24,000 nucleotides of DNA from Thiomicrospira microaerophila (GTDB lineage Bacteria > Pseudomonadota > Gammaproteobacteria > Thiomicrospirales > Thiomicrospiraceae). The translations under genes and the position numbers were made by a program. The notes below the pieces were generated by a model, which ran no database searches, was not told the DNA's origin, and saw nothing but the letters and a program-made list of their open reading frames with translations. Every line of letters starts with the position of its first letter. Within the stretch, counting starts at the first letter, position 1. The DNA is taken from NCBI RefSeq assembly GCF_000934765.1, contig NZ_JYNN01000002.1, forward strand, positions 1 to 24,000, in the 5' to 3' direction. This document shows, piece after piece, positions 1,058 through 17,814 of this stretch.

Positions 1058-2470
1058 ATGGCAAATCAAACATTTAATGCCGGTGTACAGGATTACAAGT
1101 TAACCTATTGGACACCGGACTACACTCCACTTGACACAGACCTATTGGCTTGTTTTAAAGTTATTCCACAAGCTGGCGTACCTCGTGAAGAAGCCGCTGC
1201 GGCTGTTGCTGCAGAATCTTCAACGGGTACATGGACTACTGTTTGGACTGACTTGTTAACAGACATGGAGTTCTACAAAGGTCGTTGCTACAGAATTGAA
1301 GACGTACCTGGTAATAAAGACGCGTTTTATGCATTTATCGCTTACCCGCTTGACCTTTTCGAAGAAGGTTCTGTTGTTAACGTACTAACTTCATTAGTTG
1401 GTAACGTATTTGGTTTTAAAGCCGTTCGTTCTTTACGTCTTGAAGATATTCGCTTCCCTGTTGCTTACATTAAAACATGTGGTGGCCCGCCTGCTGGTAT
1501 CCAGGTTGAGCGTGATCGTTTAAATAAATACGGTCGTCCTATGCTAGGTTGTACTATCAAGCCTAAGCTAGGTTTGTCAGCTAAGAACTACGGTCGCGCT
1601 GTTTATGAGTGTTTACGTGGTGGTTTGGATTTAACCAAAGACGACGAAAACATCAACTCACAGCCTTTCCAGCGTTGGAGAGATCGTTTCTCATTTGTTG
1701 CGGATGCAATCAATAAAGCAGAAGCTGAAACGGGCGAAGTTAAAGGTCACTACCTAAACGTAACAGCGGCAACTTGTGAAGATATGATGGAGCGTGCTGA
1801 ATATGCTAAAGAGTTAGGTGTGCGTATTATTATGCATGACTTCCTAACTGGTGGTTTCTCAGCTAACACGTCATTGGCTAACTGGTGTCGTAAGAACGGT
1901 ATGTTGTTACACATTCACCGTGCAATGCACGCTGTAATTGACCGTAACCCTAACCATGGTATCCATTTCCGCGTACTAGCTAAGTGTCTACGTTTGTCAG
2001 GTGGTGATCACTTGCACACAGGTACTGTTGTAGGTAAGTTGGAAGGTGATCGTGCGTCTACTTTAGGTTTCGTTGATCAATTACGTGAAGCGTTCGTTCC
2101 AGAAGATCGTTCACGCGGTATCTTCTTTGACCAAGATTGGGGTTCAATGCCTGGTGTATTCGCCGTAGCTTCTGGTGGTATCCATGTATGGCACATGCCA
2201 GCGTTGGTTAACATCTTTGGTGATGACTCAGTGCTTCAGTTCGGTGGTGGTACGCAAGGTCACCCAGGTGGTAACGCAGCGGGTGCCGCAGCTAACCGTG
2301 TAGCCTTGGAAGCCTGTGTTAAAGCACGTAACGAAGGTCGTGAACTTGAGCGTGAAGGTGGAGACATTCTTCGTGATGCAGCGCGTCATAGCCCAGAGCT
2401 TGCAGTTGCACTAGAAACTTGGAAAGAAATTAAGTTTGAATTCGACACTGTCGATAAACTTGACGCTTAA
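1058..2470 (+). CDS. cbbL: RuBisCO form I (IA-like) large subunit
   Basis: 470 aa with hallmark motifs [25 protein letters not shown] and [18 protein letters not shown]-like AGAGG upstream; followed by cbbS and cso genes. Confidence 0.97.
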
Positions 2471-2504: not shown

Positions 2505-2849
2505 ATGTCAGTAATGGCTTCAGGTGATTTCCGCACAAAGCGCACCTATGAAACTTTTTCGTTCTTGCCACCTTTAACTCAAGACGAAATTTACGCACAA
2601 ATCGTTTACATGATTAACCAGGGTTGGGCACCTTCACTTGAGCATGATACACCTGAAAATGGTGGTGCTTACTACTGGGGTATGTGGAAGCTACCTTTCT
2701 TCGGTATGCGTGATCCTAACCTGGTTCTTGCTGAGCTTGAAGAGTGTAAACGTGCTTATCCTGATCATATGATCCGTATCGTTGGTTATGACAACTATAC
2801 TCAGTGCAAAGGTCACGAGTTTGTTGTTTACCGTCCACGTGGTCTGTAA
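2505..2849 (+). CDS. cbbS: RuBisCO small subunit
   Basis: 114 aa with [21 protein letters not shown] and [20 protein letters not shown]; lies immediately after cbbL. Confidence 0.95.
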
Positions 2850-2879: not shown

Positions 2880-5066
2880 ATGAGTGATAATACTCAAGCC
2901 TTGTCGGGTCGTGCATTATCTCGCGCGAGAAGACAAGCATTAACAAAGGGCAAAGGCGCAAAGATTGATTATGCTGCTCTTGCTCAGAGTACCTCTGCAC
3001 CTGTAAAGAGTTCGGCGCCTGCGCGGAGTGAACCTTCGTTCGCTCCGTCTAGTCCCGCAAGATCATTTGATGTCAATCCGCAGCAGGCTATTTTGTCTGC
3101 CGGTAGAAAGGCATCGATTGAGCGTCGAAAACAACAGGTAAAAGGTAATTCACGTAACAATACCCAGCCGACTCGTCAGCCTAGAAAGCCGATTGAGCCA
3201 GTTATTGAGACGACGCCTACTCAAGCCGTCGCTAACGTTGAGCGCAGTTTTGTTCCGCCTATGAGTGCGAATACAAGCCGTGCAAAAGTTAATCCTGTAA
3301 AGTCTAGTGCAACCAATCAACCTAAAGGGCGATTAATTGCGCGTTCATACAGAAAAGCGGCTTGTGAAGGTAAAGCTAAATTGCAAGCGAAAATGAGTCA
3401 AAACAGTGCATTAACTTGCATTGCAACCTCAATGGATCCAGATGCAAGCTGTCGTGATATTGCACGCCAAATTCGTGAGCAACGTGCTACACAAGGTAAG
3501 GTTAAAGCTACTTCTTCTGCGCGCCCGACAGGTCGCATGTCAAAAAAGCCCGAGAGCAACTCACCTAGTAAGGTTGGGTTTGCGATGACGTCTCACGAAC
3601 AAGAAGTAAGTGGTACTGTTTTAGCAACTACACAAAAAATGACAGGCTCGGAAGCGGGTTCATGTCGTGTAATTTCTGGAACAGAATATACCGGTCCTGA
3701 TGAATATCAAGCAAAATGTAGTTTTAAACCTGATCCATCTATACGGAAGGTTGCGATGACCTCGACTATTTCTGGCAGAACAGTGAGTGGTACTGAAGTC
3801 GGTTTATCTGAATCAGTTACGGGTACTGAGCCAGGGCAGTGTCGTCATGTAACCGGCACCGAATATATGCCTGCTGATCAAGGTGAAATTTTTTGCGGTA
3901 CAAGAGCGCCAGCGGGTGTATCTAAAGTCAGTCAATCACGCACAGCGAAGAACCAAGTGATCTCTGGTCCCTCAATGAATAAACGTGAAGACATGACAGG
4001 TATGGACGCAGGGGAGCAGCGTCATATCACGGGTAGTCAGTATGTGTTTAATAATTCACCTATTGTCAACAAGCAAACACGTGAAATGCGCAGTTCTATT
4101 ATGTCGGCACCAAGTAAGGGTGATTCAAACTCTACGGGTGCGGGTAATAATGTTTCAGGTACTAATGTAAATTTTAATGCGCCTGTTACAGGCGATGATG
4201 CTGGTTTTTGCCAAAGTTTAACTGGCGGTGAATATCAATCACAGCAAATTCGTCAAGAACGTTGCGGTGACTCACTGACGGCGGCAGTTAAGAAAAGCAT
4301 CGAATCACAAACTTTCAACGGTCAAAAAATCACCGGCGATCGTGCAGGGCTTGGTGGTAAAATCACTGGAGCAAATGCGGGTTTGTGTAAGAGTGTAACA
4401 GGCTCGTCTTATTTAAGTTTTGATGCTACGGAAGGTTGTGCTGTTAACAAGACAGCCCTTAAGCCTGATGCACAAGCAAAATCAACGCAATCCAATGTAG
4501 GTCGTCCAATGACCGGCATTCAGCCAGGTCCTTTAGGTTTAACAGGCGCTCAAAAAGGCGTGTGTCAACCCGTGAGTGGTACGGCTTATGTGGGTTCAGA
4601 TCATGCTTCTGCGTTATGTCAGGTAGGTGCGCCAGCCAGCATGGGCGATTCAGATTTTCCAGTAATGATGAATCAGCAAATGCCGATGATGGCTTTAAGC
4701 ATGCCAATGCATAATTATGGTTATGTACCCCCTTTGCAACAGCCCGAAAATATTTTGGTAGGTTCTGAGGAGTTAAGTGAAGCGGACAAGGTAGTCTCTA
4801 AAATAACCGGAGATGGTTCAGATAGTGGGCATTCCATTACTGGCGATTCTTGGGGTAGAGACGCGAAGGTCAGTGGAACAGGGGGACGTTCGGCTCAAAA
4901 ACGTAATGTTTCGATTCCTGGTAACCGTTCAGTAATGAATGCAGGCGCGAGCAGTTTTCGACCTAATGAGAACCCAAAAGTAGCAGAAATTAGTCCGATA
5001 ACCGGTTCCTCTGGTAACACTAGAAATGGTGCATCAGTAACGGTATCTGGCGGTGCTAGAGCTTAA
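2880..5066 (+). CDS. csoS2: carboxysome assembly scaffold protein CsoS2
   Basis: 728 aa, low complexity. Four basic N-terminal repeats of the RuBisCO-binding type (for example GRALSRARRQALTKGKG). Many Cys-containing [VI][ST]G repeats (VSGTE, VTGTE, ITGSQ). Ends ...VTVSGGARA. TAGGAGG RBS; canonical position after cbbS. Confidence 0.93.
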   Translation: MSDNTQALSGRALSRARRQALTKGKGAKIDYAALAQSTSAPVKSSAPARSEPSFAPSSPARSFDVNPQQAILSAGRKASIERRKQQVKGNSRNNTQPTRQPRKPIEPVIETTPTQAVANVERSFVPPMSANTSRAKVNPVKSSATNQPKGRLIARSYRKAACEGKAKLQAKMSQNSALTCIATSMDPDASCRDIARQIREQRATQGKVKATSSARPTGRMSKKPESNSPSKVGFAMTSHEQEVSGTVLATTQKMTGSEAGSCRVISGTEYTGPDEYQAKCSFKPDPSIRKVAMTSTISGRTVSGTEVGLSESVTGTEPGQCRHVTGTEYMPADQGEIFCGTRAPAGVSKVSQSRTAKNQVISGPSMNKREDMTGMDAGEQRHITGSQYVFNNSPIVNKQTREMRSSIMSAPSKGDSNSTGAGNNVSGTNVNFNAPVTGDDAGFCQSLTGGEYQSQQIRQERCGDSLTAAVKKSIESQTFNGQKITGDRAGLGGKITGANAGLCKSVTGSSYLSFDATEGCAVNKTALKPDAQAKSTQSNVGRPMTGIQPGPLGLTGAQKGVCQPVSGTAYVGSDHASALCQVGAPASMGDSDFPVMMNQQMPMMALSMPMHNYGYVPPLQQPENILVGSEELSEADKVVSKITGDGSDSGHSITGDSWGRDAKVSGTGGRSAQKRNVSIPGNRSVMNAGASSFRPNENPKVAEISPITGSSGNTRNGASVTVSGGARA

Positions 5067-5092: not shown

Positions 5093-6037
5093 ATGAAGCT
5101 TAGAGCACCTTCGGGAAGAGTTATAACGAATAAGTTTATAAAGTCTAAGCTTCAAAAAAGACAAGAAAAGTTAAGCTATTCATCCAGTTTTACAAGCCCG
5201 CTTGTTTTGAGTGACTTGATTTGGGTGAATAGTCATCTTATAAATGCAGCACTGTTTTTGAAGTTTAAGACTGTGCAGGGAAAAACATCAGATTGTGTGA
5301 TTAAACAGCTTATTACGTTACTTAATCAAACGCAGTATGATGAGTTTTTTATTGAAAATGCTAAATCCAAAGTTTTTCGTTCTACGGGTATAAAAGTGCC
5401 CTCAGACGATTTAAGAGGTGCATGGTTTAGATCTGTTAACTTATGCTCTTTGCAGGCAAAGCTAGTTTTTATCAGCCAGTTAGCCTTTTTAATAGAAAAC
5501 TCTGTGGATTCAGAACAAACAATGAATCAAGATGGTCTACTTTATTCATTTAGTGGTAAACATTGGCAAGCTAAAGGCTTGTTACCTTCTGGTTTTCAGG
5601 AGGGGCGTGCCGTTTTAATTGAGATTGTTTTGAGTGTATTTAGCCAAGTAGATAGCTTGATAAAACAAAAAAAGCCAGTAGATATTAAAGTGTCGAGCGG
5701 TAAAGATGTGATATGGATTTCGCTAAACGAACGAGCCGATAAAAAGCTACAGGGGAGGCAACATTCTTCCGATGGCTTGTGTATGATGTTAAGTTCATGT
5801 CGGAGTGAACACCTGGTCGAATTGTCACTGGGCGAGCAATCCATAGTCGTTGACCTGGGTTTGCTTACTAGGTTGTTTGTCGATTTTCCTGATGATAACC
5901 AGTTATTATTGACTCAAGGATTTGTACAAAAAATGTTAGCGAATTTGGCTTTGGTGTTAAGTTACGATCAGCGTAGATTCATATTTATGTTCGTTCATCT
6001 TTTAGCTTTGAGTATTTTAATTAATCGCAAGAATTAA
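5093..6037 (+). CDS. hypothetical 314-aa protein in the position normally held by the carboxysomal carbonic anhydrase csoSCA
   Basis: Intact ORF packed tightly between csoS2 (26-nt gap) and csoS4A (35-nt gap). Visibly more AT-rich than its neighbours. I see no zinc-ligand or C-x-D-x-R beta-CA motif and recognise no family. About 200 aa shorter than the roughly 510-aa CsoSCA. Confidence 0.6.
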   Translation: MKLRAPSGRVITNKFIKSKLQKRQEKLSYSSSFTSPLVLSDLIWVNSHLINAALFLKFKTVQGKTSDCVIKQLITLLNQTQYDEFFIENAKSKVFRSTGIKVPSDDLRGAWFRSVNLCSLQAKLVFISQLAFLIENSVDSEQTMNQDGLLYSFSGKHWQAKGLLPSGFQEGRAVLIEIVLSVFSQVDSLIKQKKPVDIKVSSGKDVIWISLNERADKKLQGRQHSSDGLCMMLSSCRSEHLVELSLGEQSIVVDLGLLTRLFVDFPDDNQLLLTQGFVQKMLANLALVLSYDQRRFIFMFVHLLALSILINRKN

Positions 6038-6072: not shown

Positions 6073-6324
6073 ATGAAAATAATGTTGGTTGATAAAGCCA
6101 TAGTGTCAACAAATCGTATTCCAACGATGGACCATAAACCATTGTTAGTCGTTCGGGATAAGCCGGGCAGTACCCCAATGGTCGCGGTTGATGCGGTCGG
6201 TTGTAAGCCGGGAGATTGGGTTTTGTGCGTAGGCTCATCCGCCGCAAGGGACGCAACAGGTACTAAGGCTTATCCGAGTGATCTAACAATTGTTGGAATT
6301 GTTGATTATTGGGAGACCGAATAG
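6073..6324 (+). CDS. csoS4A: carboxysome pentameric vertex protein CsoS4A
   Basis: 83 aa: MKIMLVDKAIVSTNRI...AVDAVGCKPGDWVLCVGSSAARDA...DLTIVGIVD. EutN/CcmL-like fold motifs in the canonical position. Confidence 0.9.
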   Translation: MKIMLVDKAIVSTNRIPTMDHKPLLVVRDKPGSTPMVAVDAVGCKPGDWVLCVGSSAARDATGTKAYPSDLTIVGIVDYWETE

Positions 6325-6572
6325 TGGAGATTCATCAGGTAACGGGTAACTTAATTTTAACAAGTCGGCTTGATAACTTAGGTCACTTACCTGTAAAAGT
6401 TTTAAAAAGTGTATCCGGTAGTCGATTGGCTGCGGTCGATCCTATCGGATGCAAAGTTGGCGAGTGGGTATTTACCATCGCCAACTCTGCGGCTCGCACA
6501 GCTTCCGGTGATGAGAGAACCTTAACAGATTTGACCATCAGCGGAATAATCGATAACTGGGTAATGGATTAA
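6324..6572 (+). CDS. csoS4B: carboxysome pentameric vertex protein CsoS4B
   Basis: Paralogous EutN/CcmL-like sequence (AVDPIGCKVGEWVFTIANSAART...DLTISGIID). I prefer the GTG start at 6324, which overlaps the csoS4A stop as TAGTG. The ORF track's TTG at 6309 is the alternative. Confidence 0.85.
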   Translation: MEIHQVTGNLILTSRLDNLGHLPVKVLKSVSGSRLAAVDPIGCKVGEWVFTIANSAARTASGDERTLTDLTISGIIDNWVMD

Positions 6573-6709: not shown

Positions 6710-7009
6710 ATGTCAACTGAATATGGTATTGCTTTAGGTATGATTGAAACGCGTGGTTTGGTTCCGGCTATTGAAGCGGCGGACGCTATGACTAAAGCAG
6801 CTGAAGTACGTTTAGTATCTCGTGACTTCGTTGGTGGTGGTTATGTAACTGTGATGGTTCGTGGCGAAACAGGTGCGGTAAACGCAGCGGTTCGTGCGGG
6901 TGCGGATGCGTGTGAGCGTGTAGGTGATGGTCTTGTTGCTGCGCATATTATTGCACGCCCTCACAAAGAAGTTGAACCGGTTCTTAACGGTAACCTAGTT
7001 CAAGCTTAA
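6710..7009 (+). CDS. csoS1: carboxysome major shell protein CsoS1 (BMC-H hexamer)
   Basis: 99 aa: GIALGMIETRGLVPAIEAADAMTKAAEV...GDGLVAAHIIARPH, a classic BMC domain. AGGAG RBS. Confidence 0.95.
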   Translation: MSTEYGIALGMIETRGLVPAIEAADAMTKAAEVRLVSRDFVGGGYVTVMVRGETGAVNAAVRAGADACERVGDGLVAAHIIARPHKEVEPVLNGNLVQA

Positions 7010-7084: not shown

Positions 7085-7393
7085 ATGGGACAAGAATACG
7101 GTATCGCGTTAGGCATGATTGAAACACGCGGTCTAGTACCCGCTATTGAAGCTGCTGACGCAATGACTAAGGCGGCTGAAGTTCGCTTAATTACGCGTGA
7201 GTTTGTGGGTGGTGGTTATGTGACCATTATGGTTCGTGGTGAGACGGGTGCGGTTAACGCAGCCGTTCGTGCCGGTGCAGATGCGTGTGAGCGCGTTGGT
7301 GACGGTCTAGTTGCTGCACATATTATTGCTCGCCCTCACAAAGAAGTTGAGCCGGTTCTAGTTGCAGGCATTAGCCCAGCTACCCGTCTATAA
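7085..7393 (+). CDS. csoS1: carboxysome major shell protein CsoS1 paralog (BMC-H)
   Basis: 102 aa, nearly identical in protein to 6710-7009 except for the termini. Many synonymous DNA differences indicate an old duplicate. Confidence 0.95.
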   Translation: MGQEYGIALGMIETRGLVPAIEAADAMTKAAEVRLITREFVGGGYVTIMVRGETGAVNAAVRAGADACERVGDGLVAAHIIARPHKEVEPVLVAGISPATRL

Positions 7394-7436
7394 TGTGATT
7401 GAACCTAGATGTATTTTCTAGGTTTAAGGAGTAGTT

Positions 7437-7988
7437 ATGACTTATCAGAAACAAGCTAGAGCTAGTGTGATGGCCGGAGTAGGTCAGTATGCTAGACCAG
7501 AGATGCGTTCAATGGGGACAATGAATCCTCAAGTTCTTGGCTTTCTCGGGCGTGCGATGAGTCTTGAGTTTAGTGCTGCTCAGCAATATCTTGCTCATGC
7601 TGCGCTTTGTCAGAAGCGTACTGAAATGGATTTTGCAGAACAGTTTGTACAGCTTGCAAATGAAGAGTTCCGCCATGCCTCTGAATTAACAGAGCGTATG
7701 GTCGATCATGGGGCCTTGCCGTCAGGTTCAATTCTGAGTCCGGCAAAACCGGCTTTTAATATTATTGAAGCCTTATCAATTTGTGAACTCAATGAGTTGC
7801 AGTTGATTAATCTTTATGAGCAGGCTTATGGATTAAGCTCAAATCTTGGTATGGTTGCTGATGCGGAATTATTCGGTCGCTTATATGAAGAAGAAGTAGC
7901 ACAATTAAACCGTATTCGTCATTGGTCAGCTGATTATGTGGCCAGAATGCATGCGCCTCAGCCTATGACCAAAGGTTTTGCAGTATGA
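7437..7988 (+). CDS. bacterioferritin/ferritin-like protein commonly found in alpha-carboxysome loci
   Basis: 183 aa with ferritin-like helices (LEFSAAQQYLAHAA, EEFRHASELTERM). AAGGAG RBS. Its position after csoS1 matches other proteobacterial cso loci. Confidence 0.75.
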   Translation: MTYQKQARASVMAGVGQYARPEMRSMGTMNPQVLGFLGRAMSLEFSAAQQYLAHAALCQKRTEMDFAEQFVQLANEEFRHASELTERMVDHGALPSGSILSPAKPAFNIIEALSICELNELQLINLYEQAYGLSSNLGMVADAELFGRLYEEEVAQLNRIRHWSADYVARMHAPQPMTKGFAV

Positions 7989-8233
7989 GTAGCTGGAAAT
8001 TATCGAGAAACGGCTTAAGTTTGGAAGTGAAATATGTGTTTGATGGTTATAGTTCGTTAAGAGACTTTTTAGATGAGGTCGCTAATGTAACAGAGTCATT
8101 AAACATTCACCCAAACATGAGTTTTGGTCGAGATTATGCCAGTCTTATCATTTATGCAGCCGGTGAAGGCTTATCTGATGCTGAAAAAGCACTTGCTGAA
8201 AAAATTGATTTAATTTATCAACAATTTAAGTAG
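7985..8233 (+). CDS. pterin-4a-carbinolamine dehydratase-like protein (alpha-carboxysome RuBisCO assembly factor, acRAF type)
   Basis: 82 aa. ATGA start/stop overlap with the upstream gene. PCD-like core (...SLNIHPNMSFGRDYASLII...). Canonical position at the end of cso operons. Confidence 0.7.
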   Translation: MSSWKLSRNGLSLEVKYVFDGYSSLRDFLDEVANVTESLNIHPNMSFGRDYASLIIYAAGEGLSDAEKALAEKIDLIYQQFK

Positions 8234-8248
8234 TGTTTATTGGTATTT

Positions 8249-8276
8249 AAAAGGCTGGCTTGTCCAGCCTTTTTTA
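8249..8276 (+). terminator. rho-independent terminator ending the cso operon
   Basis: AAAAGGCTGG (8249-8258), loop CTTGT, CCAGCCTTTT (8264-8273), followed by more T residues. Confidence 0.8.
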
Positions 8277-8676
8277 TGAACAACGCTTTTTTATGAATTT
8301 GATGAGAACCTGGTTTGGTGCTTAAAAAGAATGCCAAATCAGCTTTATAAGAAACACTTATTGGTAACACCAAATTAAATGTTTTTAGCCCGACGGCATC
8401 GGGTGTTAGCCTGTGGAGCAAAATCGTTGGATTTCGTTGTGAAGCAGGAACCGGTTTTAATTGAAAGGCATGCCGCTATAAAGTTGAAACGCTCGGATAC
8501 AAAGCGTATTTGAGAAATCCTGTCTTTTTTGGGGGGAGGGTGCCAATGAATTGCAATCAAACTAAGCTAAAAGCTTAATGGATTCACCTAGGTGCTAAAG
8601 GATGTTTTTAGCAGTTAAAACCCATACAGTGACTTTACGAAGCTGTTGATTTTGATAAATTATTGGGAATCTTTTT

Positions 8677-10002
8677 ATGGCTACAACAGAATTAGAACAA
8701 AAAACAGAACAAAATACGAATCTGTGTGCAGGCAAATCATGCGCTGCATTTCAAAAAAAATACGTCGTACGTGACGTTCAAGCGGGTGTGATTACCGCAG
8801 CTATGGCTATACCCCTTTCGATTGGTATTGCTATCATGTCAGAGTATCCCATTCAAGTAGGTTTAGCAACGGTTGCATTTGCATCGTTTATTGGTTGGAT
8901 GTTTGCCTGGTTTAGACCCGGTAACTTTATTGGCGCACCGGGTATTGCAGCAGGTTTAGCGCCCATTCTTGCCATGGGTGTGTCGATGTTTGGCATAGGG
9001 AATATGGCTTTTATTATCTTCTTGACGGCTACTTTTCAGGCCATTATTTGGAAGTTTAATTGGCAGCGTTATATCTTGCAGCTGGTTCCGACTTATTTGG
9101 TGGAGGGGTTGCTTGCAGGTATCGGATTAAAAATTGTACTCGCCTTTTTACTTTTTACCTATGAAGTGCCCGTTGAATTTGCATCGGCGGATTCTTTTTT
9201 CACGGCTGAGCGTTGGATTGTAATTGGACTGTCTTTAGTTGGTGCCGCCTTGTTCTTATTTCTGTTTAAAAAGTTTAAGGACCGCCAACCTGCGGTGCCT
9301 TATTTTGCGCTTATTGTCTATGGGATAGTGGCTTCTTTAGTTTTACCTGTAACCATGTTGCATGTTGAAGATGCCGAGCTTGCTTTAGCTTTGCCCATAC
9401 CTGATTTTGGTACACCTGCTCTATGGGCTTATGCGATCGGCTTTGCGTTAATGCTCGCTATTATTGATGTGATTGAGCAGGTGATGAGTAATGCGGCGAT
9501 TGAGAAAATAGATCCGTTAAAGCGTAAGTGTGATAGTAATAACAGTCTACTCTCTATCTGGGTATCCAATATGGGCTCGAGTTTTTTTGGCGGGATGACC
9601 AACCTAGATGGGTTGGCTAAAAGCTCGACTAACCGTTTAGCTGGTGCGTATACTAAGTTATCTGTATTGGTGATTGCGTTAGTTATCAGCTTTTTTGTAA
9701 TCAATATTCAATACCTTGATTTTTTACCTAAATTTGCGCTTGGTATTATTATGATTTTTGTGGGTATCAAAATGATTTTGGGCTTGATGCATGTTGCCCA
9801 TCACGGGCGCTATGCATTGTTGCTAGCGGTGCTCTGTGGCTTGTTGGTTTATTGGGTAGGGATATTTGAAGGTTTACTGATTGCCTTGGCCGTGCATGCA
9901 TTTATCAACTTTGTGATCTTCAAAGAACGCGACAATATTGGTACAAATGATATGGTAAGAAACTATATTAATAAGTTTAAAGAGGAAGACGGTTTAAATT
10001 AA
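8677..10002 (+). CDS. SulP-family anion transporter lacking a STAS domain; candidate bicarbonate/DIC transporter
   Basis: 441 aa polytopic membrane protein. SulP-like N-terminal motif (RDVQAGVITAAMAIPLSIGIAIMS). No C-terminal soluble domain. Sits next to the carboxysome locus, as reported for SulP-type DIC transporters in this clade. Confidence 0.75.
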   Translation: MATTELEQKTEQNTNLCAGKSCAAFQKKYVVRDVQAGVITAAMAIPLSIGIAIMSEYPIQVGLATVAFASFIGWMFAWFRPGNFIGAPGIAAGLAPILAMGVSMFGIGNMAFIIFLTATFQAIIWKFNWQRYILQLVPTYLVEGLLAGIGLKIVLAFLLFTYEVPVEFASADSFFTAERWIVIGLSLVGAALFLFLFKKFKDRQPAVPYFALIVYGIVASLVLPVTMLHVEDAELALALPIPDFGTPALWAYAIGFALMLAIIDVIEQVMSNAAIEKIDPLKRKCDSNNSLLSIWVSNMGSSFFGGMTNLDGLAKSSTNRLAGAYTKLSVLVIALVISFFVINIQYLDFLPKFALGIIMIFVGIKMILGLMHVAHHGRYALLLAVLCGLLVYWVGIFEGLLIALAVHAFINFVIFKERDNIGTNDMVRNYINKFKEEDGLN

Positions 10003-10173
10003 TATTGATAACCTATTTATTTTAGTCAATGATTAGGTAGTGAAATACCAATTTTACTTGATATGTTTTTTAGAATAATATGCTAAACCATTAGGTCAAC
10101 TGCTTTATTTGGCCTAATAGACTCAGGGGGGGCAAACGCTTTGAGTCTTTCACTATTTTTTTAGGGGGTTAGT

Positions 10174-11157
10174 ATGGGTTTAGATGCAATATTAATACCG
10201 GCTATATTGTTTTTTGCCTTGGGCGTGTTCGCTAAGGTCATTAAATCGGACTTAAAATTTCCCGAAGGTTTATCTAAGGGTTTATCGCTTTATCTTTTAA
10301 TTGCTATAGGTTTAAAAGGTGGTGCGGAGTTAGCCAATGCCGAATTAGGTCTGGCGATAAAATCTATTATGTGGGCCATCGTGCTGGGCTTCCTAACGCC
10401 GATTATCGGCTATATGATTTTGCGTTTCCGTGACAAGATTGACAGAATGAATGCGGCGGCCATTACCGCGCACTATGGTTCAGTGAGTGCAGGTACGTTT
10501 CTTACTGCGATTGCCTTTTTAGATGTTAGTGGCATTGAGTATGAGACCTACCCGATCATTATGATGGTGGTGATGGAAACCCCAGCTATTATTATCGGTT
10601 TGCTATTAGCGGCGCTTGCTCGAAAGCAATTGCAGCAGCAAGAGGCGGGTGAAACGGTAGCGACGCCTTGGAAATCGTTATTACACGAAGCCTTAACAAA
10701 TGGTAGTGTGGTGCTTTTGATTGGTGCGATGGTGATTGGTGCTATCTCAAGCCCTGAGGCGATGGAGAAAGTGTATCCTTTTTCACATGAAATTTTTATG
10801 GGCGTTCTATGTCTGTTCTTGCTTGATTTGGGTATGGAAGCGGCACGTCGAATGAAGGCTTTTAAAGAGGTCGGTGTCACACTGGTTGCTTTTGGTATCA
10901 TTATGCCGTTAATCGGTGGCACCATTGGTATGGTTGTAGCCGCTAGCTTCCTCGGCTTTGGTGTCGGTGGTACGCTATTGGTCGCAATACTGGGCGCGAG
11001 TGCCTCTTATATTGCTGTGCCACCTGCCATGCGCATGGGTGTGCCTGAAGCGAATCCTTCGTACTACCTGACTTTGGCGTTAGGCGTCACGTTTCCATTT
11101 AACGTGTTAGTCGGCATTCCGTTGTTTTATAACTTATCAATTTGGTATATAGGCTAA
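10174..11157 (+). CDS. sbtA: SbtA-family sodium-dependent bicarbonate transporter
   Basis: 327 aa membrane protein with SbtA-like motifs (IGLKGGAEL, HYGSVSAGTF, ASASYIAVPPAMRMGVPEANPS). Followed by a PII-like gene, as in sbtAB. Confidence 0.85.
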   Translation: MGLDAILIPAILFFALGVFAKVIKSDLKFPEGLSKGLSLYLLIAIGLKGGAELANAELGLAIKSIMWAIVLGFLTPIIGYMILRFRDKIDRMNAAAITAHYGSVSAGTFLTAIAFLDVSGIEYETYPIIMMVVMETPAIIIGLLLAALARKQLQQQEAGETVATPWKSLLHEALTNGSVVLLIGAMVIGAISSPEAMEKVYPFSHEIFMGVLCLFLLDLGMEAARRMKAFKEVGVTLVAFGIIMPLIGGTIGMVVAASFLGFGVGGTLLVAILGASASYIAVPPAMRMGVPEANPSYYLTLALGVTFPFNVLVGIPLFYNLSIWYIG

Positions 11158-11170
11158 AGGGAGGGGGACC

Positions 11171-11482
11171 ATGAGTTGCGAACAGAGATTAATTCAGATT
11201 ATTACATCGAATATCTTAGAAAACCGGGTCAAGAAGTTGTTTAAAAAGCTAGGTATTAAATCGTTTACTAGTTTTGGTGTGAACGGTGAGGGTGATACCG
11301 GGCTTCAATCTGGGCATTTTGATGCCGATAGCAATGTACTTTTTATGTTATTGCTTTCGGAAGAGAAGATGCTTGAATTGGTCGAAGAGTTAAACAAAGA
11401 TATTCAAAAGGGTTATCATCACTTTGTGTTTAGTTTGAATGCACAAATGCATACACCTTATAAATGTAAATCTGAAGTTTAA
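11171..11482 (+). CDS. sbtB: PII-like signalling protein SbtB
   Basis: 103 aa of beta-alpha-beta PII-like length and pattern (LIQIITSNILENRVKKLFKKLGIKSFTSFGVNGEG), 13 nt downstream of sbtA. Confidence 0.75.
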   Translation: MSCEQRLIQIITSNILENRVKKLFKKLGIKSFTSFGVNGEGDTGLQSGHFDADSNVLFMLLLSEEKMLELVEELNKDIQKGYHHFVFSLNAQMHTPYKCKSEV

Positions 11483-11497: not shown

Positions 11498-12451
11498 ATG
11501 AAGGACGATAAAAAAAACTTATCCAATTATCTTGTCAGGCATCTTACCTTACGACAAATTCAAGTGTTTGAGGCTGTAGCACGTTATCAAAGCTTTACCA
11601 AAGCCGCGGACGCTTTACATCTAACGCAACCGACAGTGTCTACTCAAATCAAAAGTTTTCAAGAGTCTTTAGGTGTAGCGCTTTATGAGCAAATTGGGCG
11701 CAACATTTTTTTAACCGAAGTGGGTGAGCAAGTTGCACTTGCTTGTCGTGAAATGTTAAGTAACCTGTCCAATCTTGAAATTAAGTTAAATGATTTTAAA
11801 GGGAAGCGAAAAGGTCGATTAAGAATTACCGCAGTCACCAGTGCGAAGTATTTTTTACCTTTGGCATTGGGTGAGTTTGTGAAGAGTTATCCAGAGATTG
11901 AGCTTGAATTTACGGTCTGTAATCGTGATAGTTTATTGAAGCGGATTGAGGAGAATCTGGATGATCTGTACATTATGGGGCAAAAGCCGCCTAGCAACTT
12001 GGATGTGGTTGATATTCCTTTTACCCCTAACCCTTTGGTATTGATTGCGCATCAAGATCATCCTTTTGTAGGGCGACGTGCGATTCCTTTATCAGAGATT
12101 GCCAAAGAGCCTATCTTGATGCGTGAAATTGGTTCCGGAACACGCTCTGCGGTAGAGGATAAGTTTCATCAAGCGGGCTTAAAATTAAATGTACGCTTAA
12201 CATTGGAAAGCACTGAAACCATTAAACAGGCCGTGTTTGCGCATTTGGGTATTGCTGTTGTGCCCATGCATGCGGTGTATTTGGATGGGGCGAAAGGGCC
12301 GATATCGATTTTGGATGTAGAAGGTTTTCCACTTGAAAAAGAGTTGAATATTGTGTATCCAACGGGAAAATCCTTGTCGATTATCGCCAGAGCATTTTTA
12401 GATTTGTTGCAACAAAAAGGTGCTCAGTATTTTCAGCTCCCTCGCGCTTGA
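11498..12451 (+). CDS. LysR-family transcriptional regulator, CbbR/CcmR-like
   Basis: 317 aa. N-terminal HTH LTLRQIQVFEAVARYQSFTKAADALHLTQPTVSTQIKSFQESLG, typical of CbbR-type regulators. Lies among CCM genes. Confidence 0.88.
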   Translation: MKDDKKNLSNYLVRHLTLRQIQVFEAVARYQSFTKAADALHLTQPTVSTQIKSFQESLGVALYEQIGRNIFLTEVGEQVALACREMLSNLSNLEIKLNDFKGKRKGRLRITAVTSAKYFLPLALGEFVKSYPEIELEFTVCNRDSLLKRIEENLDDLYIMGQKPPSNLDVVDIPFTPNPLVLIAHQDHPFVGRRAIPLSEIAKEPILMREIGSGTRSAVEDKFHQAGLKLNVRLTLESTETIKQAVFAHLGIAVVPMHAVYLDGAKGPISILDVEGFPLEKELNIVYPTGKSLSIIARAFLDLLQQKGAQYFQLPRA

Positions 12452-12538: not shown

Positions 12539-13081
12539 ATGAGAAATCAATCTATTAATATTACCGGCACAGCGGGTATTGAGTCTTCTAGACAAAGTCG
12601 TGTGAGCTTAAATAGTGCATTACGCAATCCATCTGAAGCCGTAACAGGCGTGTCAAGACGTCCTATTGATACCGTGGTAGCCGTTGAACAAAGTTTTTGC
12701 GCGCCTATGGATGAAAAATTGGCAACGGAATTGTTCAAAAAATGGAATGAAGCGTTGCAAACGGGTAATCCTAAAGCCGTGGCGGCGCTTTATTCTGAGG
12801 ACGCGGTATTGTTACCAACTGTATCAAATTTAGCGCGCACTAATTTAGCTGAAATAGAAGATTATTTCGCTCACTTTTTAGAAAAGAAGCCGTATGGCAC
12901 TATTATTCAGCGAAATGTCAAAAAAGGTTGCAATAAGTTAACGGATGCAGGTATTTATTCATTCCGTTTGACAGATCATACCGGCACAAAAGATGTCGCC
13001 GCACGCTACACTTTTGTGTATGAGCATCGCAACGGTGGTTGGAAGATTGCCCATCATCATTCATCGGTTATGCCAGAGTAA
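12539..13081 (+). CDS. iota-class carbonic-anhydrase-like protein (CaMKII-association/SgcJ-EcaC fold) with a roughly 56-aa disordered N-terminal extension
   Basis: The C-terminal ~124 aa read W..AL..GNP.AVAALYSEDAVLLPTVSN...YF..FL..KP.G...ARYTFVY...GGWKIAHHHSSVMP, ending in the HHHSS signature reported for iota-CAs. AAGGAAAG RBS before the ATG at 12539. The N-terminus is S/R/N/T-rich with no hydrophobic signal peptide. Confidence 0.72.
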   Translation: MRNQSINITGTAGIESSRQSRVSLNSALRNPSEAVTGVSRRPIDTVVAVEQSFCAPMDEKLATELFKKWNEALQTGNPKAVAALYSEDAVLLPTVSNLARTNLAEIEDYFAHFLEKKPYGTIIQRNVKKGCNKLTDAGIYSFRLTDHTGTKDVAARYTFVYEHRNGGWKIAHHHSSVMPE

Positions 13082-13735: not shown

Positions 13736-14350
13736 ATGATTAAACTTCGAACCTACATTTTTATTAACTCTTTGCAGCCACAAATTGCATCTTATATGGG
13801 AACGGCGGCGCAGGGTTTCTTACCTGTCCCAGGTGATGCCTGTTTATGGATGGAGGTCGCGCCTGGTATGGCGGTTCATCGCTTGACAGATATTGCGTTG
13901 AAAGGCTCTAATGTGCATTTAGGTCAACAGGTCGTTGAGCGTGCATACGGTTCGATGGTGATTCATCATCGTGATCAGAGTGATGTACTCGAGAGCGGTG
14001 AAAAAGTATTAGATTATTTAAACACAGAAGAGTGTTCTCGTCAGAAATGTCATATTATGTGGAATGAGATTATTCGTTCTATTATGCCGGATCATGCCGT
14101 ATTGATTAACCGAGACAATCGCCGTGGTTCGATGATCCTTCCTGGGCAGAGCATGTATATTATGGAAACGGAGCCAGCGGGCTATATTGTGTATGCGGCT
14201 AATGAGGCGGAAAAAGCGGCGAATATTACTTTAATTGAAGCACGTGCTGTGGGGGCTTATGGGCGCCTGATATTAGCGGGAAATGAGGCGGATATTAATA
14301 CAGCGGCTGAAGCCGCCACAAAAGCGATTCAAAATCTGAGTGGCGTTTAA
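13736..14350 (+). CDS. csoS1D: tandem-BMC (pseudohexameric) carboxysome shell protein CsoS1D
   Basis: 204 aa. [50 protein letters not shown]...[16 protein letters not shown]...[25 protein letters not shown] closely resembles the CsoS1D sequences I remember. Confidence 0.85.
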
Positions 14351-14427: not shown

Positions 14428-14688
14428 TTAATCAGGCCAAACTCGACGTGCGGGCAGTATTTTGGGCTTGTCTTCTGTAGGCTTAGTGTCAGTCGCTTTT
14501 TCAACTGGCTTGGCGACTGGCTTTTTAGCCGGTGCGGGTTTTGCTGTAGCCGCAGGCTTTGTTTCTTCTGTTGCTGTTGTGCTGGTGTCGGTTGTATCGT
14601 TCATCTTACTGGTTGTCTCCGTTGTTGTTTGTGCGTTGTTTGCAGTGGCCTTGGCGGCAGTGGTTCTTGGTTTGCGTCTAGTGACCAT
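14428..14688 (-). CDS. mcdB: intrinsically disordered K/T/A/P-rich protein, McdB-like carboxysome positioning adaptor
   Basis: 86 aa of low complexity (TTETTSK..., AKPAPAKKPVAKPVEK) with a C-terminal ...RRVWPD tryptophan. Overlaps the stop of the upstream ParA-like gene by 11 nt. Adjacent to csoS1D. Confidence 0.62.
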   Translation of the reverse strand: MVTRRKPRTTAAKATANNAQTTTETTSKMNDTTDTSTTATEETKPAATAKPAPAKKPVAKPVEKATDTKPTEDKPKILPARRVWPD

Positions 14689-15310
14689 GGATTTCCTCCC
14701 ATAATTGTTGAATTTCTTCAGTTGCTTTTGTGTTGTTCATTTCGACGACGCCATAACCTAAGCTGATGGCATCACGATAAACTTTACGATCTCGAATAAT
14801 CGTGTTTAGCAGATGAATATCTTGATAATCTTTTAGGTATTCTTTAGCTTCTTCCACTTCTTTTACCGAGGTGTTAGTTGGTGCGAGGGTGAGTGCCGCT
14901 CTTACTTTGAGTTTTGAGTTGTAGTCCTTGCTTAGCGTGATAATTTCTTGCAAGCTTGGTAAAACATCGAGATCTGGCTGTGAAGGTCGAAATGGAATCA
15001 ATAACACATTCGCGGCTGTCATGCCGGTACGCAACTCTCGAGAGTCGCGGCCACCGGCATCGACGATCACATATTCATAGCGTTTGCCCAAATCCAGAAG
15101 TGTGTCACGAATGTTGTCAAAGGCTTGAACGTGATTAACTTTGGGTTTGTCTGTTTCGATGCGGTCCAGTGCCCAGTTGGATGAGGTGGCTTGACGATCG
15201 GCATCGACAATAATCACGTCTTTTCCTTGGGTGACCAGCAAGGCAGCAAGGTTAGTGGTGAGTGTGCTTTTTCCGCAACCGCCTTTAATGTTGGCTATTT
15301 GTATAATCAT
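14678..15310 (-). CDS. mcdA: ParA/MinD-family ATPase, McdA-like (maintenance of carboxysome distribution)
   Basis: 210 aa with a deviant Walker A (ANIKGGCGKST), VDADRQ and VIVDAGG. No parB or partition site nearby. Paired with a disordered partner next to carboxysome genes. Confidence 0.75.
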   Translation of the reverse strand: MIIQIANIKGGCGKSTLTTNLAALLVTQGKDVIIVDADRQATSSNWALDRIETDKPKVNHVQAFDNIRDTLLDLGKRYEYVIVDAGGRDSRELRTGMTAANVLLIPFRPSQPDLDVLPSLQEIITLSKDYNSKLKVRAALTLAPTNTSVKEVEEAKEYLKDYQDIHLLNTIIRDRKVYRDAISLGYGVVEMNNTKATEEIQQLWEEIHGH

Positions 15311-16165: not shown

Positions 16166-16318
16166 GTCAACAACCCCGGGCTAAAGCCCGAGGCTTGAGG
16201 GAAACCAAAAGCCTCGTTGACCAGAGGGCTTGATTTGTATTAAGCAGTAGACGATAACGGGTCGTTAAGACTTACCTTGGGATGCTTCCTTAGTCCCAAG
16301 CTCTAAAAGGCGTTGAGA
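16166..16318 (+). repeat. tandem module 2 of the omega-RNA-like scaffold (153 nt)
   Basis: Directly abuts module 1 and has the same start and end sequences. Roughly nine-tenths identical by hand alignment, with differences in predicted loops or as compensatory stem changes. Confidence 0.9.
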
Positions 16319-16446
16319 ATTCTGGCATAGGGTGCGTGCCGAATCTTGATGTCGCCACTTCGGTGGGAGCCGGTTATCGTCAATCTCGAAGGGAGATGCC
16401 GAAAGGCACGTTACTAGTCCCGTAAGGGTAATAATGGGAGGATACC

Positions 16447-17814
16447 GTGTCGGTATTTGTATTAGCAAAAAACAAGAAGCCGTTAATGCCTTGTTCAGAG
16501 AAACGCGCAAGGCTACTGCTTTCTCGGGGGCGTGCGGTGGTGCATTTGATGGTGCCGTTTACGATTCGGTTAAAAGGCCGCACTGACGGTGCAATTCAGC
16601 CACTTCACGTCAAACTTGACCCTGGCTCAAAGCAAACCGGTATGGCGGTGGTACTGGAATCCAAGCTGGATTTAAAGGTGTTGTGGTTAAGTGTGATTCA
16701 CCACCGCAGCCATCAGATCAGTGAACAGCTTACCGCACGACGTGCTATGCGCCGCCGTCGCCGTAATCAGCTTTGGTATCGGCCTGCACGGTTTGACAAC
16801 CGCACCCGGCCTAGTGGTTGGTTAGCGCCTTCACTGCAGCATCGTGTCGATACCACGCTGGCTTGGGTTAAAAAACTATCCAAGCTAGCACCGGTATCGG
16901 ACATCGGCTTGGAGCGGGTGAAGTTTGATATGCAGAAAATGGTGAATGGTGATATTGCAGGCGCTGAATACCAACAAGGCACGCTGTTTGGGTTTGAGGT
17001 GAAAGAATACTTGCTGGCCAAGCACAAGCATACCTGCGCCTATTGCAACGGAGTAAGCGGCGACAACCGGCTTGAGGTGGAACACGTCCAGCCTCGCTCA
17101 AAAGGCGGCGGCAACAGCGTTAAAAATCTGGTTATTGCGTGTCGGAGCTGCAACGAGGCGAAAGGCAGCCAACTTCTTCCAGAATGGAAGCAATCGCTGG
17201 GCAAATCCAAGCTGGATAAATCTCGCGCCATCGGGATTGAGAAAACCATCAAGGGCAAGTGGACAGGTTTGCGGGATGCGGCGGCGGTGAATACCACGCG
17301 TAATGCTTTACTGCATGAGCTGTTACTGTTCGCAAAAGACAATGTATCGGTCTATACCGGTACAGGGGCGATGACCAAGTTTAATCGCAAGCAACAAGGT
17401 ATTTCCAAGCATCATGCGCTTGATGCATTGTGTGTCGGTGAGAGCCTCAAGCCGGTTAAAAACTGGACCAAACCGGTACTGGAGATTAAATGCACGGGTC
17501 GCGGGAGCTATCAGCGTACACGACTGAACAAGTTTGGTTTTCCACGCGGTTATTTAATGCGCCAAAAAGCGGTGCATGGCTTTCAGACCGGCGATCAGGT
17601 TAAAGCGGTGGTTCCCAGTGGGAAAAAGCAAGGTATTTACACAGGCCGTGTGGCGGTTCGTGCCAGCGGAAGTTTTAACATCCAAGCCGCCAATGGTTTG
17701 GTTCAGGGCATTAGCCATAAGCACTGCACGTTAATCCAACGTGGCAGCGGTTACGGCTTTAATTTAACAACGATAGCATTAACTCACGGAGAACGCGAGA
17801 AACAGGCGGCCTAA
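16447..17814 (+). CDS. iscB: IscB, an OMEGA-family RNA-guided endonuclease (RuvC with an HNH insertion)
   Basis: 455 aa, GTG start after GGGAGG. Domains seen: N-terminal PLMP motif (KNKKPLMPC); RuvC-I LDPGSKQTG; Arg-rich bridge helix RRAMRRRRRNQLWYRPARFDNR; RuvC-II GLERVKFD; HNH CAYCNG...LEVEHVQPRSKGG...NLVIACRSCNEAKG; RuvC-III HHALDAL; C-terminal GFQTGDQVKA...GRVAVRASGSFNI. Confidence 0.9.
   Translation: MSVFVLAKNKKPLMPCSEKRARLLLSRGRAVVHLMVPFTIRLKGRTDGAIQPLHVKLDPGSKQTGMAVVLESKLDLKVLWLSVIHHRSHQISEQLTARRAMRRRRRNQLWYRPARFDNRTRPSGWLAPSLQHRVDTTLAWVKKLSKLAPVSDIGLERVKFDMQKMVNGDIAGAEYQQGTLFGFEVKEYLLAKHKHTCAYCNGVSGDNRLEVEHVQPRSKGGGNSVKNLVIACRSCNEAKGSQLLPEWKQSLGKSKLDKSRAIGIEKTIKGKWTGLRDAAAVNTTRNALLHELLLFAKDNVSVYTGTGAMTKFNRKQQGISKHHALDALCVGESLKPVKNWTKPVLEIKCTGRGSYQRTRLNKFGFPRGYLMRQKAVHGFQTGDQVKAVVPSGKKQGIYTGRVAVRASGSFNIQAANGLVQGISHKHCTLIQRGSGYGFNLTTIALTHGEREKQAA

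Follow-up and report, generated by a model that had tools for sequence, protein, structure and literature searches.

CsoSX of Thiomicrospira microaerophila, a catalytically dead CsoSCA descendant in an alpha-carboxysome operon with a predicted iota-class carbonic anhydrase

Introduction

Carboxysomes are thought to require an internal carbonic anhydrase (CA), and an alpha-carboxysome (cso) operon that lacks csoSCA, the gene for the carboxysomal beta-CA, therefore looks paradoxical. Many species of Thiomicrospira come from alkaline soda lakes. This study concerns one such operon, located in the first 24,000 nucleotides (nt) of contig NZ_JYNN01000002.1 of Thiomicrospira microaerophila (this whole 24-kb stretch is hereafter the window), and in particular the open reading frame (ORF) of 314 amino acids (aa) that occupies the csoSCA slot between csoS2 and csoS4A. 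The absence of csoSCA from all Thiomicrospira cso loci was described by Sutter, Kerfeld and Scott in 2022, who, in a section entitled 'No csoSCA', considered a gene flanked by csoS2 and csoS4A 'likely to be a degraded form of csoSCA' (PMC9164163). In T. pelophila, T. thyasirae and T. microaerophila this gene matched Pfam08936 with E-values of only 0.006 to 4.5e-05; the catalytic residues were all missing, and the N-termini could still be aligned to CsoSCA and might still help to pack Rubisco (PMC9164163).

In later papers the gene is named csoSX, a name that they credit to Wieschollek et al. 2024 (AEM 90:e0107524). CsoSX is defined by weak similarity to CsoSCA at the N-terminus only, the lack of catalytic residues and the csoS2–csoS4A position (PMC9164163, PMC12646314). 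The same 2024 article is also cited by later papers for the presence of an iota-class CA, rather than CsoSCA, in Thiomicrospira carboxysomes. Published work thus resolves the paradox: in Thiomicrospira an iota-class CA has taken the place of CsoSCA, of which a dead stub is retained. A 2025 study of T. pelophila detected csoSX transcripts, whose levels were unchanged under limitation of dissolved inorganic carbon (DIC), and a 2026 review states, at second hand, that 'mutation of [CsoSX] impacts alpha-CB formation'.

The ORF at 5093–6037 is, with little doubt, the published CsoSX of Thiomicrospira. A first-pass annotation of the window had singled it out as a possible novel family or new carboxysome component; since the degraded csoSCA was already described in 2022, this was the correct catch of a known oddity and not a discovery. 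To the published description of CsoSX the present analysis adds domain boundaries, the lack of a detectable relative for the C-terminal half, rates of evolution, an N-terminal motif and a count of co-occurrence with the iota-class CA.

Homology of CsoSX to CsoSCA

The window holds a complete alpha-carboxysome locus on the forward strand, in the order cbbL-cbbS-csoS2-csoSX-csoS4A-csoS4B-csoS1-csoS1 as assigned with Pfam and NCBIfam, and csoSX is separated from csoS2 by 26 nt and from csoS4A by 35 nt. The extent of the ORF, these tight gaps and the canonical gene order are all as first annotated. A scan for promoters and terminators around the ORF gave no signal above chance, which is consistent with co-transcription of csoSX, short of proof. 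The csoSX product is 100% identical to an NCBI entry named 'hypothetical protein [Thiomicrospira microaerophila]'.

CsoSX is a catalytically dead descendant of CsoSCA that has lost the whole catalytic apparatus and kept the N-terminal module, and its homology to CsoSCA is confined to the N-terminal domain. No Pfam family was reached at E <= 0.01, and the family signals below threshold came from NCBIfam TIGR02701, 'carboxysome shell carbonic anhydrase' (E 0.0032, residues 59–142 on profile positions 17–97), and from Pfam CsoSCA_N (E 0.015). The CsoSCA_N match, likewise graded as sub-threshold, recurred in 6 of the 11 CsoSX family members, with a best E of 1.8e-4. Profile–profile comparison with hhalign, in which a CsoSX alignment (A1 or A3) was set against 28 genuine CsoSCA proteins (A2), paired CsoSX residues ~55–163 with the CsoSCA N-domain when whole proteins were used (probability 78–92%, E 1.7e-5 to 6e-7). 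The N-terminal part alone gave 93.8% and E 1.7e-7 (CsoSX 38–146 against CsoSCA 45–154), and the comparison of domain with domain gave 96.3% and E 1.5e-9. That only residues ~38–146 match CsoSCA, and without metal ligands, fits the suggestion of the first-pass annotation that the gene is a degenerate, dead and shortened CsoSCA relic.

The strongest pairwise relationship was to the CsoSCA of locus L009 (BLASTP E 1e-10, 31% identity across residues 49–172). This locus belongs to a metagenome-assembled genome (MAG) labelled Thiomicrospira sp. UBA5634; its CsoSCA is full-length (515 aa, 681–2228) and has the N-domain nearest to that of CsoSX, and no iota-class CA lies within the 12 kb examined. L009 may represent the ancestral state or a mislabelled relative, and it would be a useful outgroup for dating the CA swap.

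Structural comparison points in the same direction. An AlphaFold2 model of full-length CsoSX (predicted local distance difference test score, pLDDT, 73.9; predicted template modelling score, pTM, 0.75) was searched with Foldseek against 350,542 PDB chains, and the top four matches were all CsoSCA (three 8THM chains and 9G4T, E 0.012–0.043). The template modelling (TM) scores of these matches were only ~0.25, which fits a single shared domain. Single-sequence and profile searches of PDB sequences with CsoSX returned no match.

Loss of the catalytic site and the unrecognised C-terminal half

Across the 11 CsoSX family members no Cys is conserved and no Asp-Arg pair is conserved, and the sole semi-conserved His is at position 48. 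CsoSX therefore cannot form a beta-CA zinc site, and the early reading that the ORF has neither Cys/His/Cys zinc ligands nor the Asp-Arg dyad extends to the family. The same annotation had picked out S-D-D-L-R as a faint echo of the C-x-D-x-R motif. The pentapeptide is indeed present at residues 104–108, but it lies within the N-terminal helical domain and aligns to the CsoSCA N-domain segment 'LGFxLPxxxLxxAW', opposite 'LP...L..AW', so that a catalytic vestige at this place was rejected.

A search of the whole 24 kb with the 28 genuine CsoSCA proteins by tblastn found matches only at 5180–5608. This region is N-domain, except where the best alignment ends: its final ~20 residues reach the first residues of the catalytic domain. 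Because the matches are confined in this way, the window holds no csoSCA catalytic domain, as had been noted by eye, and the six frames yielded no out-of-frame catalytic remnant in csoSX. At the end of the BLASTP alignment, CsoSX KHWQAKGLLPSGFQEGR (residues 156–172, window 5558–5608) is paired with the L009 CsoSCA stretch 'GFHAVGVAPCA--DGR', the site of the zinc Cys and of the Asp-x-Arg dyad. Within this stretch 'PCA--DGR' pairs with 'PSGFQEGR' at 165–172, with Cys replaced by Ser166, Asp by Glu170, and Arg172 kept. The PSGFQEGR stretch is not conserved among other CsoSX proteins, and from the alignment KHWQAKGLLPSGFQEGR may be the last trace of the active-site motif or strand in this species.

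The remainder of the protein has no detectable relationship to CsoSCA. With hhalign, residues 173–314 scored 17.2 against the CsoSCA catalytic domain (20 column shuffles, 8.8–17.3) and 10.2 against the C-terminal, pseudo-catalytic domain (20 column shuffles, 8.1–15.1); the C-terminal half did no better than a reversed profile either, and local alignment gave a probability below 1%. A few collinear in-frame matches of CsoSX ~175–220 to CsoSCA ~408–479 were not significant (E 0.8–1.5). A separate model of residues 150–314 (pLDDT 79, pTM 0.79) shows a long helix, an antiparallel beta-meander and three helices, and its best Foldseek match in the PDB (E 0.012, TM 0.21, CinB/Hjc-like) is noise, with no CsoSCA chain recovered. 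The view that the C-terminal half is a decayed catalytic or C-terminal domain of CsoSCA is thus unsupported by the shuffles, the six-frame search and Foldseek alike.

The C-terminal module is itself conserved, with L255, Q279, Y291, Q293, R295, V301 and L306 invariant and block-mean pLDDT values of 76–92, mostly above 80. Its hydrophobic tail, recognised at first pass, is the segment FIFMFVHLLALSILI at residues 296–310, which is predicted as a packed helix in a helical bundle (block-mean pLDDT 82–92). A membrane anchor is unlikely, given this predicted packing and a hydrophobic run of only ~15 residues that N, H or E break up in relatives.

Family, synteny and evolutionary rate

The ORF had been called an orphan; in fact, 13 relatives were found in identical synteny. 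A word-indexed search of 5.8 billion proteins returned five CsoSX relatives with 37–42% identity, and an exhaustive HMMER search of 1.84 billion cluster representatives returned eight real members only, a ninth match (P0012, 779 aa) being a repetitive unrelated protein that was set aside. All relatives whose loci were fetched sit between csoS2 and csoS4A, with the rest of the cluster as in the window where the contig extends.

A scan of a genome collection with CsoS4A identified 80 loci, in which the ORF upstream of csoS4A was classified where it could be extracted. Three Thiomicrospira genomes carry a more divergent CsoSX (332 aa in L006 and L007, 250 aa in L008), and the other extracted loci have a full CsoSCA of about 500–635 aa. 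The exception is L034 (MAG Gammaproteobacteria M2_metabat2_scaf2bin.212), in which csoS2 abuts csoS4A with nothing between: in the region 7393–10276, csoS2 (827 aa) ends at 9876 and a csoS4A-like ORF starts at 9983, no ORF lies in the gap of ~100 nt, and neither a CsoSX-like nor an iota-CA-like sequence occurs in the 16.5 kb examined.

No other gene of the cluster evolves nearly as fast as csoSX. Identity to three related loci is 37–42% for CsoSX and 74–100% for the 16 neighbouring proteins. In the closest pair, L003 and L086, CsoSX is 72% identical (nonsynonymous divergence, dN, 0.175; synonymous divergence, dS, 0.42), and the adjacent CsoS2 C-terminus is 98% identical (dN 0.009, dS 0.17). 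The reading frame is nonetheless intact in 13/13 divergent full-length sequences of 250–334 aa, with no frameshift or stop, in lineages saturated at synonymous sites (dS around or above 1). Ratios of dN to dS, calculated by the Nei-Gojobori method in the four closest CsoSX pairs (Table 1), describe constraint on two modules, with a nearly unconstrained region between them. The gene is under weak but real purifying selection, which acts at both ends, and is not a pseudogene.

The N-terminal peptide and the Rubisco groove

Residues 1–37 are the best-conserved part of CsoSX, reading M-K-L-R-[SA]-P-S-G-[KR]-V-I-T-N..., with R4, P6 and G8 nearly invariant. They precede the homologous domain and thereby match the position of the disordered Rubisco-binding peptide of CsoSCA. 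That peptide is necessary and sufficient for encapsulation via Rubisco and binds in the groove that two CbbL subunits form with one CbbS (PMC10614612). In Halothiobacillus neapolitanus the resolved motif begins at an essential proline, P22-RLDLIEQA, and no consensus across species was found beyond prolines followed by R or xR (PMC10614612).

In L006 and L007, which encode the two most divergent CsoSX proteins, the motif is partially duplicated in tandem (5137–5200 and 8962–9025, respectively), with 'MKVSLPSKKVI' followed by 'RAPSGKVIT', a duplication that suggests a binding element. Among CsoSCA N-termini, 22 of the 56 carry 'AP..[RK]', mostly as '[TV]AP[LRS][RG]RPG[AD]', compared with a mean of 6 and a maximum of 16 in 1000 shuffles, and two read 'VAPSGRPGD' where CsoSX has 'RAPSGRVIT'. 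By analogy with these termini, we infer that CsoSX may retain a docking motif of the CsoSCA type.

The Rubisco encoded in the window keeps the groove residues, namely CbbL D99, F346 and the 19–29 loop, and CbbS D94/Y96. It has F72 and A345 in place of Y72 and S345 of H. neapolitanus; because the F/A pair also occurs in five CsoSCA-bearing loci, two of which are labelled Hydrogenovibrio (L025, L026), these substitutions carry no signal, and a groove change specific to the CsoSX lineage was rejected.

A predicted iota-class carbonic anhydrase downstream

A gene 6.5 kb downstream of csoSX, overlooked in the first-pass annotation, encodes a protein with a CaMKII_AD/SnoaL-like domain (PF08332, COG4875), whose C-terminus KIAHHHSSVMPE ends in '...IAHHHSSVMPE' and contains the HHHSS consensus, a hallmark of iota-class CAs (PMC7191908). 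Judged from these features it is an iota-class CA, the predicted functional replacement for CsoSCA. Wherever a CsoSX locus extends far enough (L001, L002, L006, L007 and L008), it holds an orthologue with 64–90% identity, compared with 0/76 in the fetched flanks of loci that carry a CsoSCA catalytic domain.

Residues ~1–56 of this protein (window 12539–12706) form an extension outside the Pfam match that is conserved in the same five loci and is probably disordered. It contains the triplets ITG at 8–10 and [VI]TG at 35–37 (VTG in the window), together with a conserved 'VS.RPIDT' stretch. Triplets of the form (V/I)(T/S)G are the residues of CsoS2 repeats that bind the CsoS1 shell (PMC11365436), and among the cluster proteins [VI][TS]G occurs only in CsoS2 (19), CsoS4B (3) and the iota-CA (2). 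The extension may accordingly be a self-contained shell-targeting peptide; if so, it would be a CsoS2-mimicking element that could be reused in cargo engineering.

Proposed role and alternative explanations

In the explanation that we favour, CsoSX descends from the carboxysomal beta-CA CsoSCA and keeps the peptide of residues 1–37 and the helical domain ~38–146. Catalysis, that is, bicarbonate dehydration in these carboxysomes, would have been taken over by the downstream iota-CA, and CsoSX would bind Rubisco, and possibly the shell, through the retained N-terminal module and so help to organise the cargo. By analogy with CsoSCA, CsoSX is thus probably a non-catalytic factor of carboxysome assembly or docking, its binding partners and its part in assembly being those that we infer. 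If the N-terminal module does dock to Rubisco or the shell, the part of CsoSCA not involved in catalysis has a structural function in its own right, and CsoSX would be a natural minimal encapsulation module of interest for carboxysome engineering. Several points weigh against this explanation. Since PRLDLIEQA of H. neapolitanus, the one Rubisco-binding motif of CsoSCA to have been defined by structure, is not shared across species, the assignment of the CsoSX motif to Rubisco is an analogy; since CsoSCA also binds CsoS1A non-specifically, according to a 2025 PNAS study, the partner could be the shell; and in the 2025 T. pelophila paper csoSX still appears under 'hypothetical protein of unknown function'. 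The constraint on csoSX is also weak, its dN/dS of 0.2–0.4 being several-fold above the 0.03–0.13 of the neighbours and its middle third nearly neutral (0.5–0.9). That last observation, with a dN roughly 20-fold that of csoS2 next to it, the variable length of the protein and a transcription in T. pelophila that does not respond to DIC, would fit a functionless relic in slow decay, kept open by an essential operon through translational coupling or spacing. We consider such a relic improbable: no frame was broken in any of the 13 full-length lineages despite synonymous saturation, dN/dS is ~0.2 at the N-terminus and 0.09–0.49 at the C-terminus with invariant residues present, and both AlphaFold2 models are confident folds. 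Operon structure does not force retention, because L034 lost csoSCA by plain deletion, an example of csoSCA-losing lineages that removed the gene outright, and a mutant phenotype is reported, if only by the secondary statement in the 2026 review.

The strict co-occurrence of CsoSX with the extended iota-CA, and the division of CsoSX into two separately conserved modules with a variable, linker-like region between them, can also be accommodated by an adaptor, an idea already raised in the first-pass annotation, in which the N-terminal module would dock to Rubisco and the C-terminal module would hold the iota-CA at the place of the old enzyme. The iota-CA, however, has a conserved ~55-aa extension of its own with two [IV]TG triplets and may be targeted to the shell by itself, which would weaken the adaptor idea, and it is 87–90% conserved where CsoSX is 37–42%, an unusual disparity for tightly co-evolving partners; an adaptor therefore seems rather unlikely. 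A more speculative form of it, to which we give similarly little credence, would make the C-terminal 140–170 residues, rather than a decayed beta-CA domain, a newly evolved, lineage-specific alpha/beta module that binds the iota-CA or the shell through its conserved helical end, and CsoSX a purpose-built adaptor that enabled the swap from a beta- to an iota-class CA. Least credible, to the point of being very hard to sustain, is the insertion of an unrelated cassette, of horizontal origin, in place of csoSCA, or a new kind of CA. A GC content of 0.366 against 0.451 for the window, the lack of a Pfam match above threshold and a C-terminal half without detectable homologue speak for it, but the in-frame, collinear homology to the CsoSCA N-domain (E 1e-10 pairwise, 1.5e-9 between profiles) contradicts a cassette, and a new CA is at odds with the absence of conserved metal-binding or catalytic residues and with the iota-CA already present. 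The ORF had been described as noticeably AT-rich, which is true of its overall GC, but its GC at third codon positions (GC3, 0.346) lies within the range of the neighbours (0.27–0.46), and the pcd-like and sbtB genes have just as high an AT content. Amino-acid composition, not foreign origin, thus accounts for the skew, and a horizontal origin inferred from low GC was rejected. Of the roles that the first-pass annotation had offered, the degenerate, dead and shortened CsoSCA relic serving as a pseudo-enzyme scaffold is thus favoured by the evidence and the literature, whereas a replacement cassette is incompatible with the homology of the N-domain and with the strict synteny.

Other features of the window

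Downstream of the shell genes, SulP (441 aa, no STAS domain detected) and SbtA with the PII-like SbtB (together 8677–11482) constitute two candidate DIC transporters within the carboxysome locus, and the SulP and SbtA genes match 'sulP-CS' and 'sbtA-CS' studied in T. pelophila (PMC12628692). A ParA/MinD-type ATPase gene on the reverse strand is followed by a low-complexity ORF of 86 aa that is rich in T, A, K and P and ends in ...RRVWPD. The pair is conserved in L001 and L002, where a 74–78-aa ORF lies beside ParA, and from its sequence it looks like an McdA/McdB carboxysome-positioning pair; a C-terminal Trp is presumably a hallmark of McdB.

The window also contains an IscB-type mobile element. 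A HEARO/omega-RNA at 16166–16400 (Rfam RF02033, 90.1 bits, E 2.3e-17) is followed by a 455-aa ORF at 16447–17814 with RRXRR (E 3.8e-68) and HNH domains. The element has a GC content of 0.51–0.54 against 0.45 for the window; because it is missing from the syntenic L001 and L002, in which the YcgL gene is directly followed by the epimerase gene, it is probably a genome-specific insertion.

Table 1 Coordinates of the features in the window, with dN/dS for csoSX, its parts and neighbouring genes
Feature	Position	Strand	Support	dN/dS
cbbL	1058–2470	+	Pfam, NCBIfam	
cbbS	2505–2849	+	Pfam, NCBIfam	
csoS2	2880–5066	+	Pfam CsoS2_M E 1e-92; NCBIfam	
csoSX (ORF-X), ATG start, 314 aa, stop codon included	5093–6037	+		0.21–0.42 (whole gene)
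csoSX residues 1–37, highly conserved peptide; candidate short linear docking motif R-[AS]-P-S-G-[KR]-V-I-T at start	5093–5203	+		
csoSX residues 38–146, helical domain homologous to CsoSCA N-terminal domain	5204–5530	+	CsoSCA_N, PF20687	
csoSX residues 147–254, variable middle with indels; predicted one helix and antiparallel beta-hairpins	5531–5854	+	no detectable relative	
csoSX residues 255–314, conserved C-terminal helical module with hydrophobic last helix	5855–6034	+		
csoSX codons 1–140				0.19–0.24
csoSX middle				0.5–0.63
csoSX last 62 codons				0.09–0.49
Neighbouring genes				0.03–0.13
csoS4A	6073–6324	+	Pfam EutN_CcmL	
csoS4B	6309–6572	+	Pfam EutN_CcmL	
csoS1, two genes	6710–7009, 7085–7393	+	Pfam BMC	
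Bacterioferritin-like gene	7437–7988	+		
Pterin-dehydratase-like (pcd-like) gene	7985–8233	+		
SulP	8677–10002	+		
SbtA	10174–11157	+		
PII-like SbtB	11171–11482	+		
LysR/CbbR	11498–12451	+		
Predicted iota-class CA (CaMKII_AD-domain protein), 180 aa	12539–13081	+	Pfam CaMKII_AD E 1.5e-21	
Ham1	ends 13713	+		
csoS1D-like tandem-BMC shell protein	13736–14350	+	Pfam BMC; CsoS1D_N annotated on orthologues	
86-aa low-complexity ORF	14428–14688	-		
ParA/MinD-type ATPase	14678–15310	-		
IscB-type mobile element	16166–17814	+		

Comparison with known systems

The protein of the window does not differ from published CsoSX: it comes from the same species, has the csoS2–csoS4A position, matches CsoSCA at the N-terminus only, lacks catalytic residues and has an iota-class CA near the operon. 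With CsoSCA itself (PF20687 N-domain, PF08936 catalytic domain; PDB 2FGY, 8THM and 9G4T) it shares the operon slot, the N-terminal helical domain and a conserved N-terminal peptide at the position of the Rubisco-binding peptide. Unlike CsoSCA, it is about 200 aa shorter, has no Cys-His-Cys zinc site, no Asp-Arg dyad and no recognisable catalytic or C-terminal pseudo-catalytic domain, and evolves many times faster.

In principle, the gamma-CA-like domain of CcmM in the beta-carboxysomes of Synechococcus PCC 7942 and Synechocystis 6803 works like CsoSX. The two are unrelated in fold and lineage, the former being a gamma-CA trimer, and the whole fold survives in CcmM, but in CsoSX the catalytic fold is gone altogether. 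CsoSCA2, the non-carboxysomal truncated homologues of CsoSCA (PMC9164163), is likewise a shortened derivative of the CsoSCA family, but the truncation is opposite: in CsoSCA2 the N-terminus is missing and the catalytic residues remain, and in CsoSX it is the other way round.

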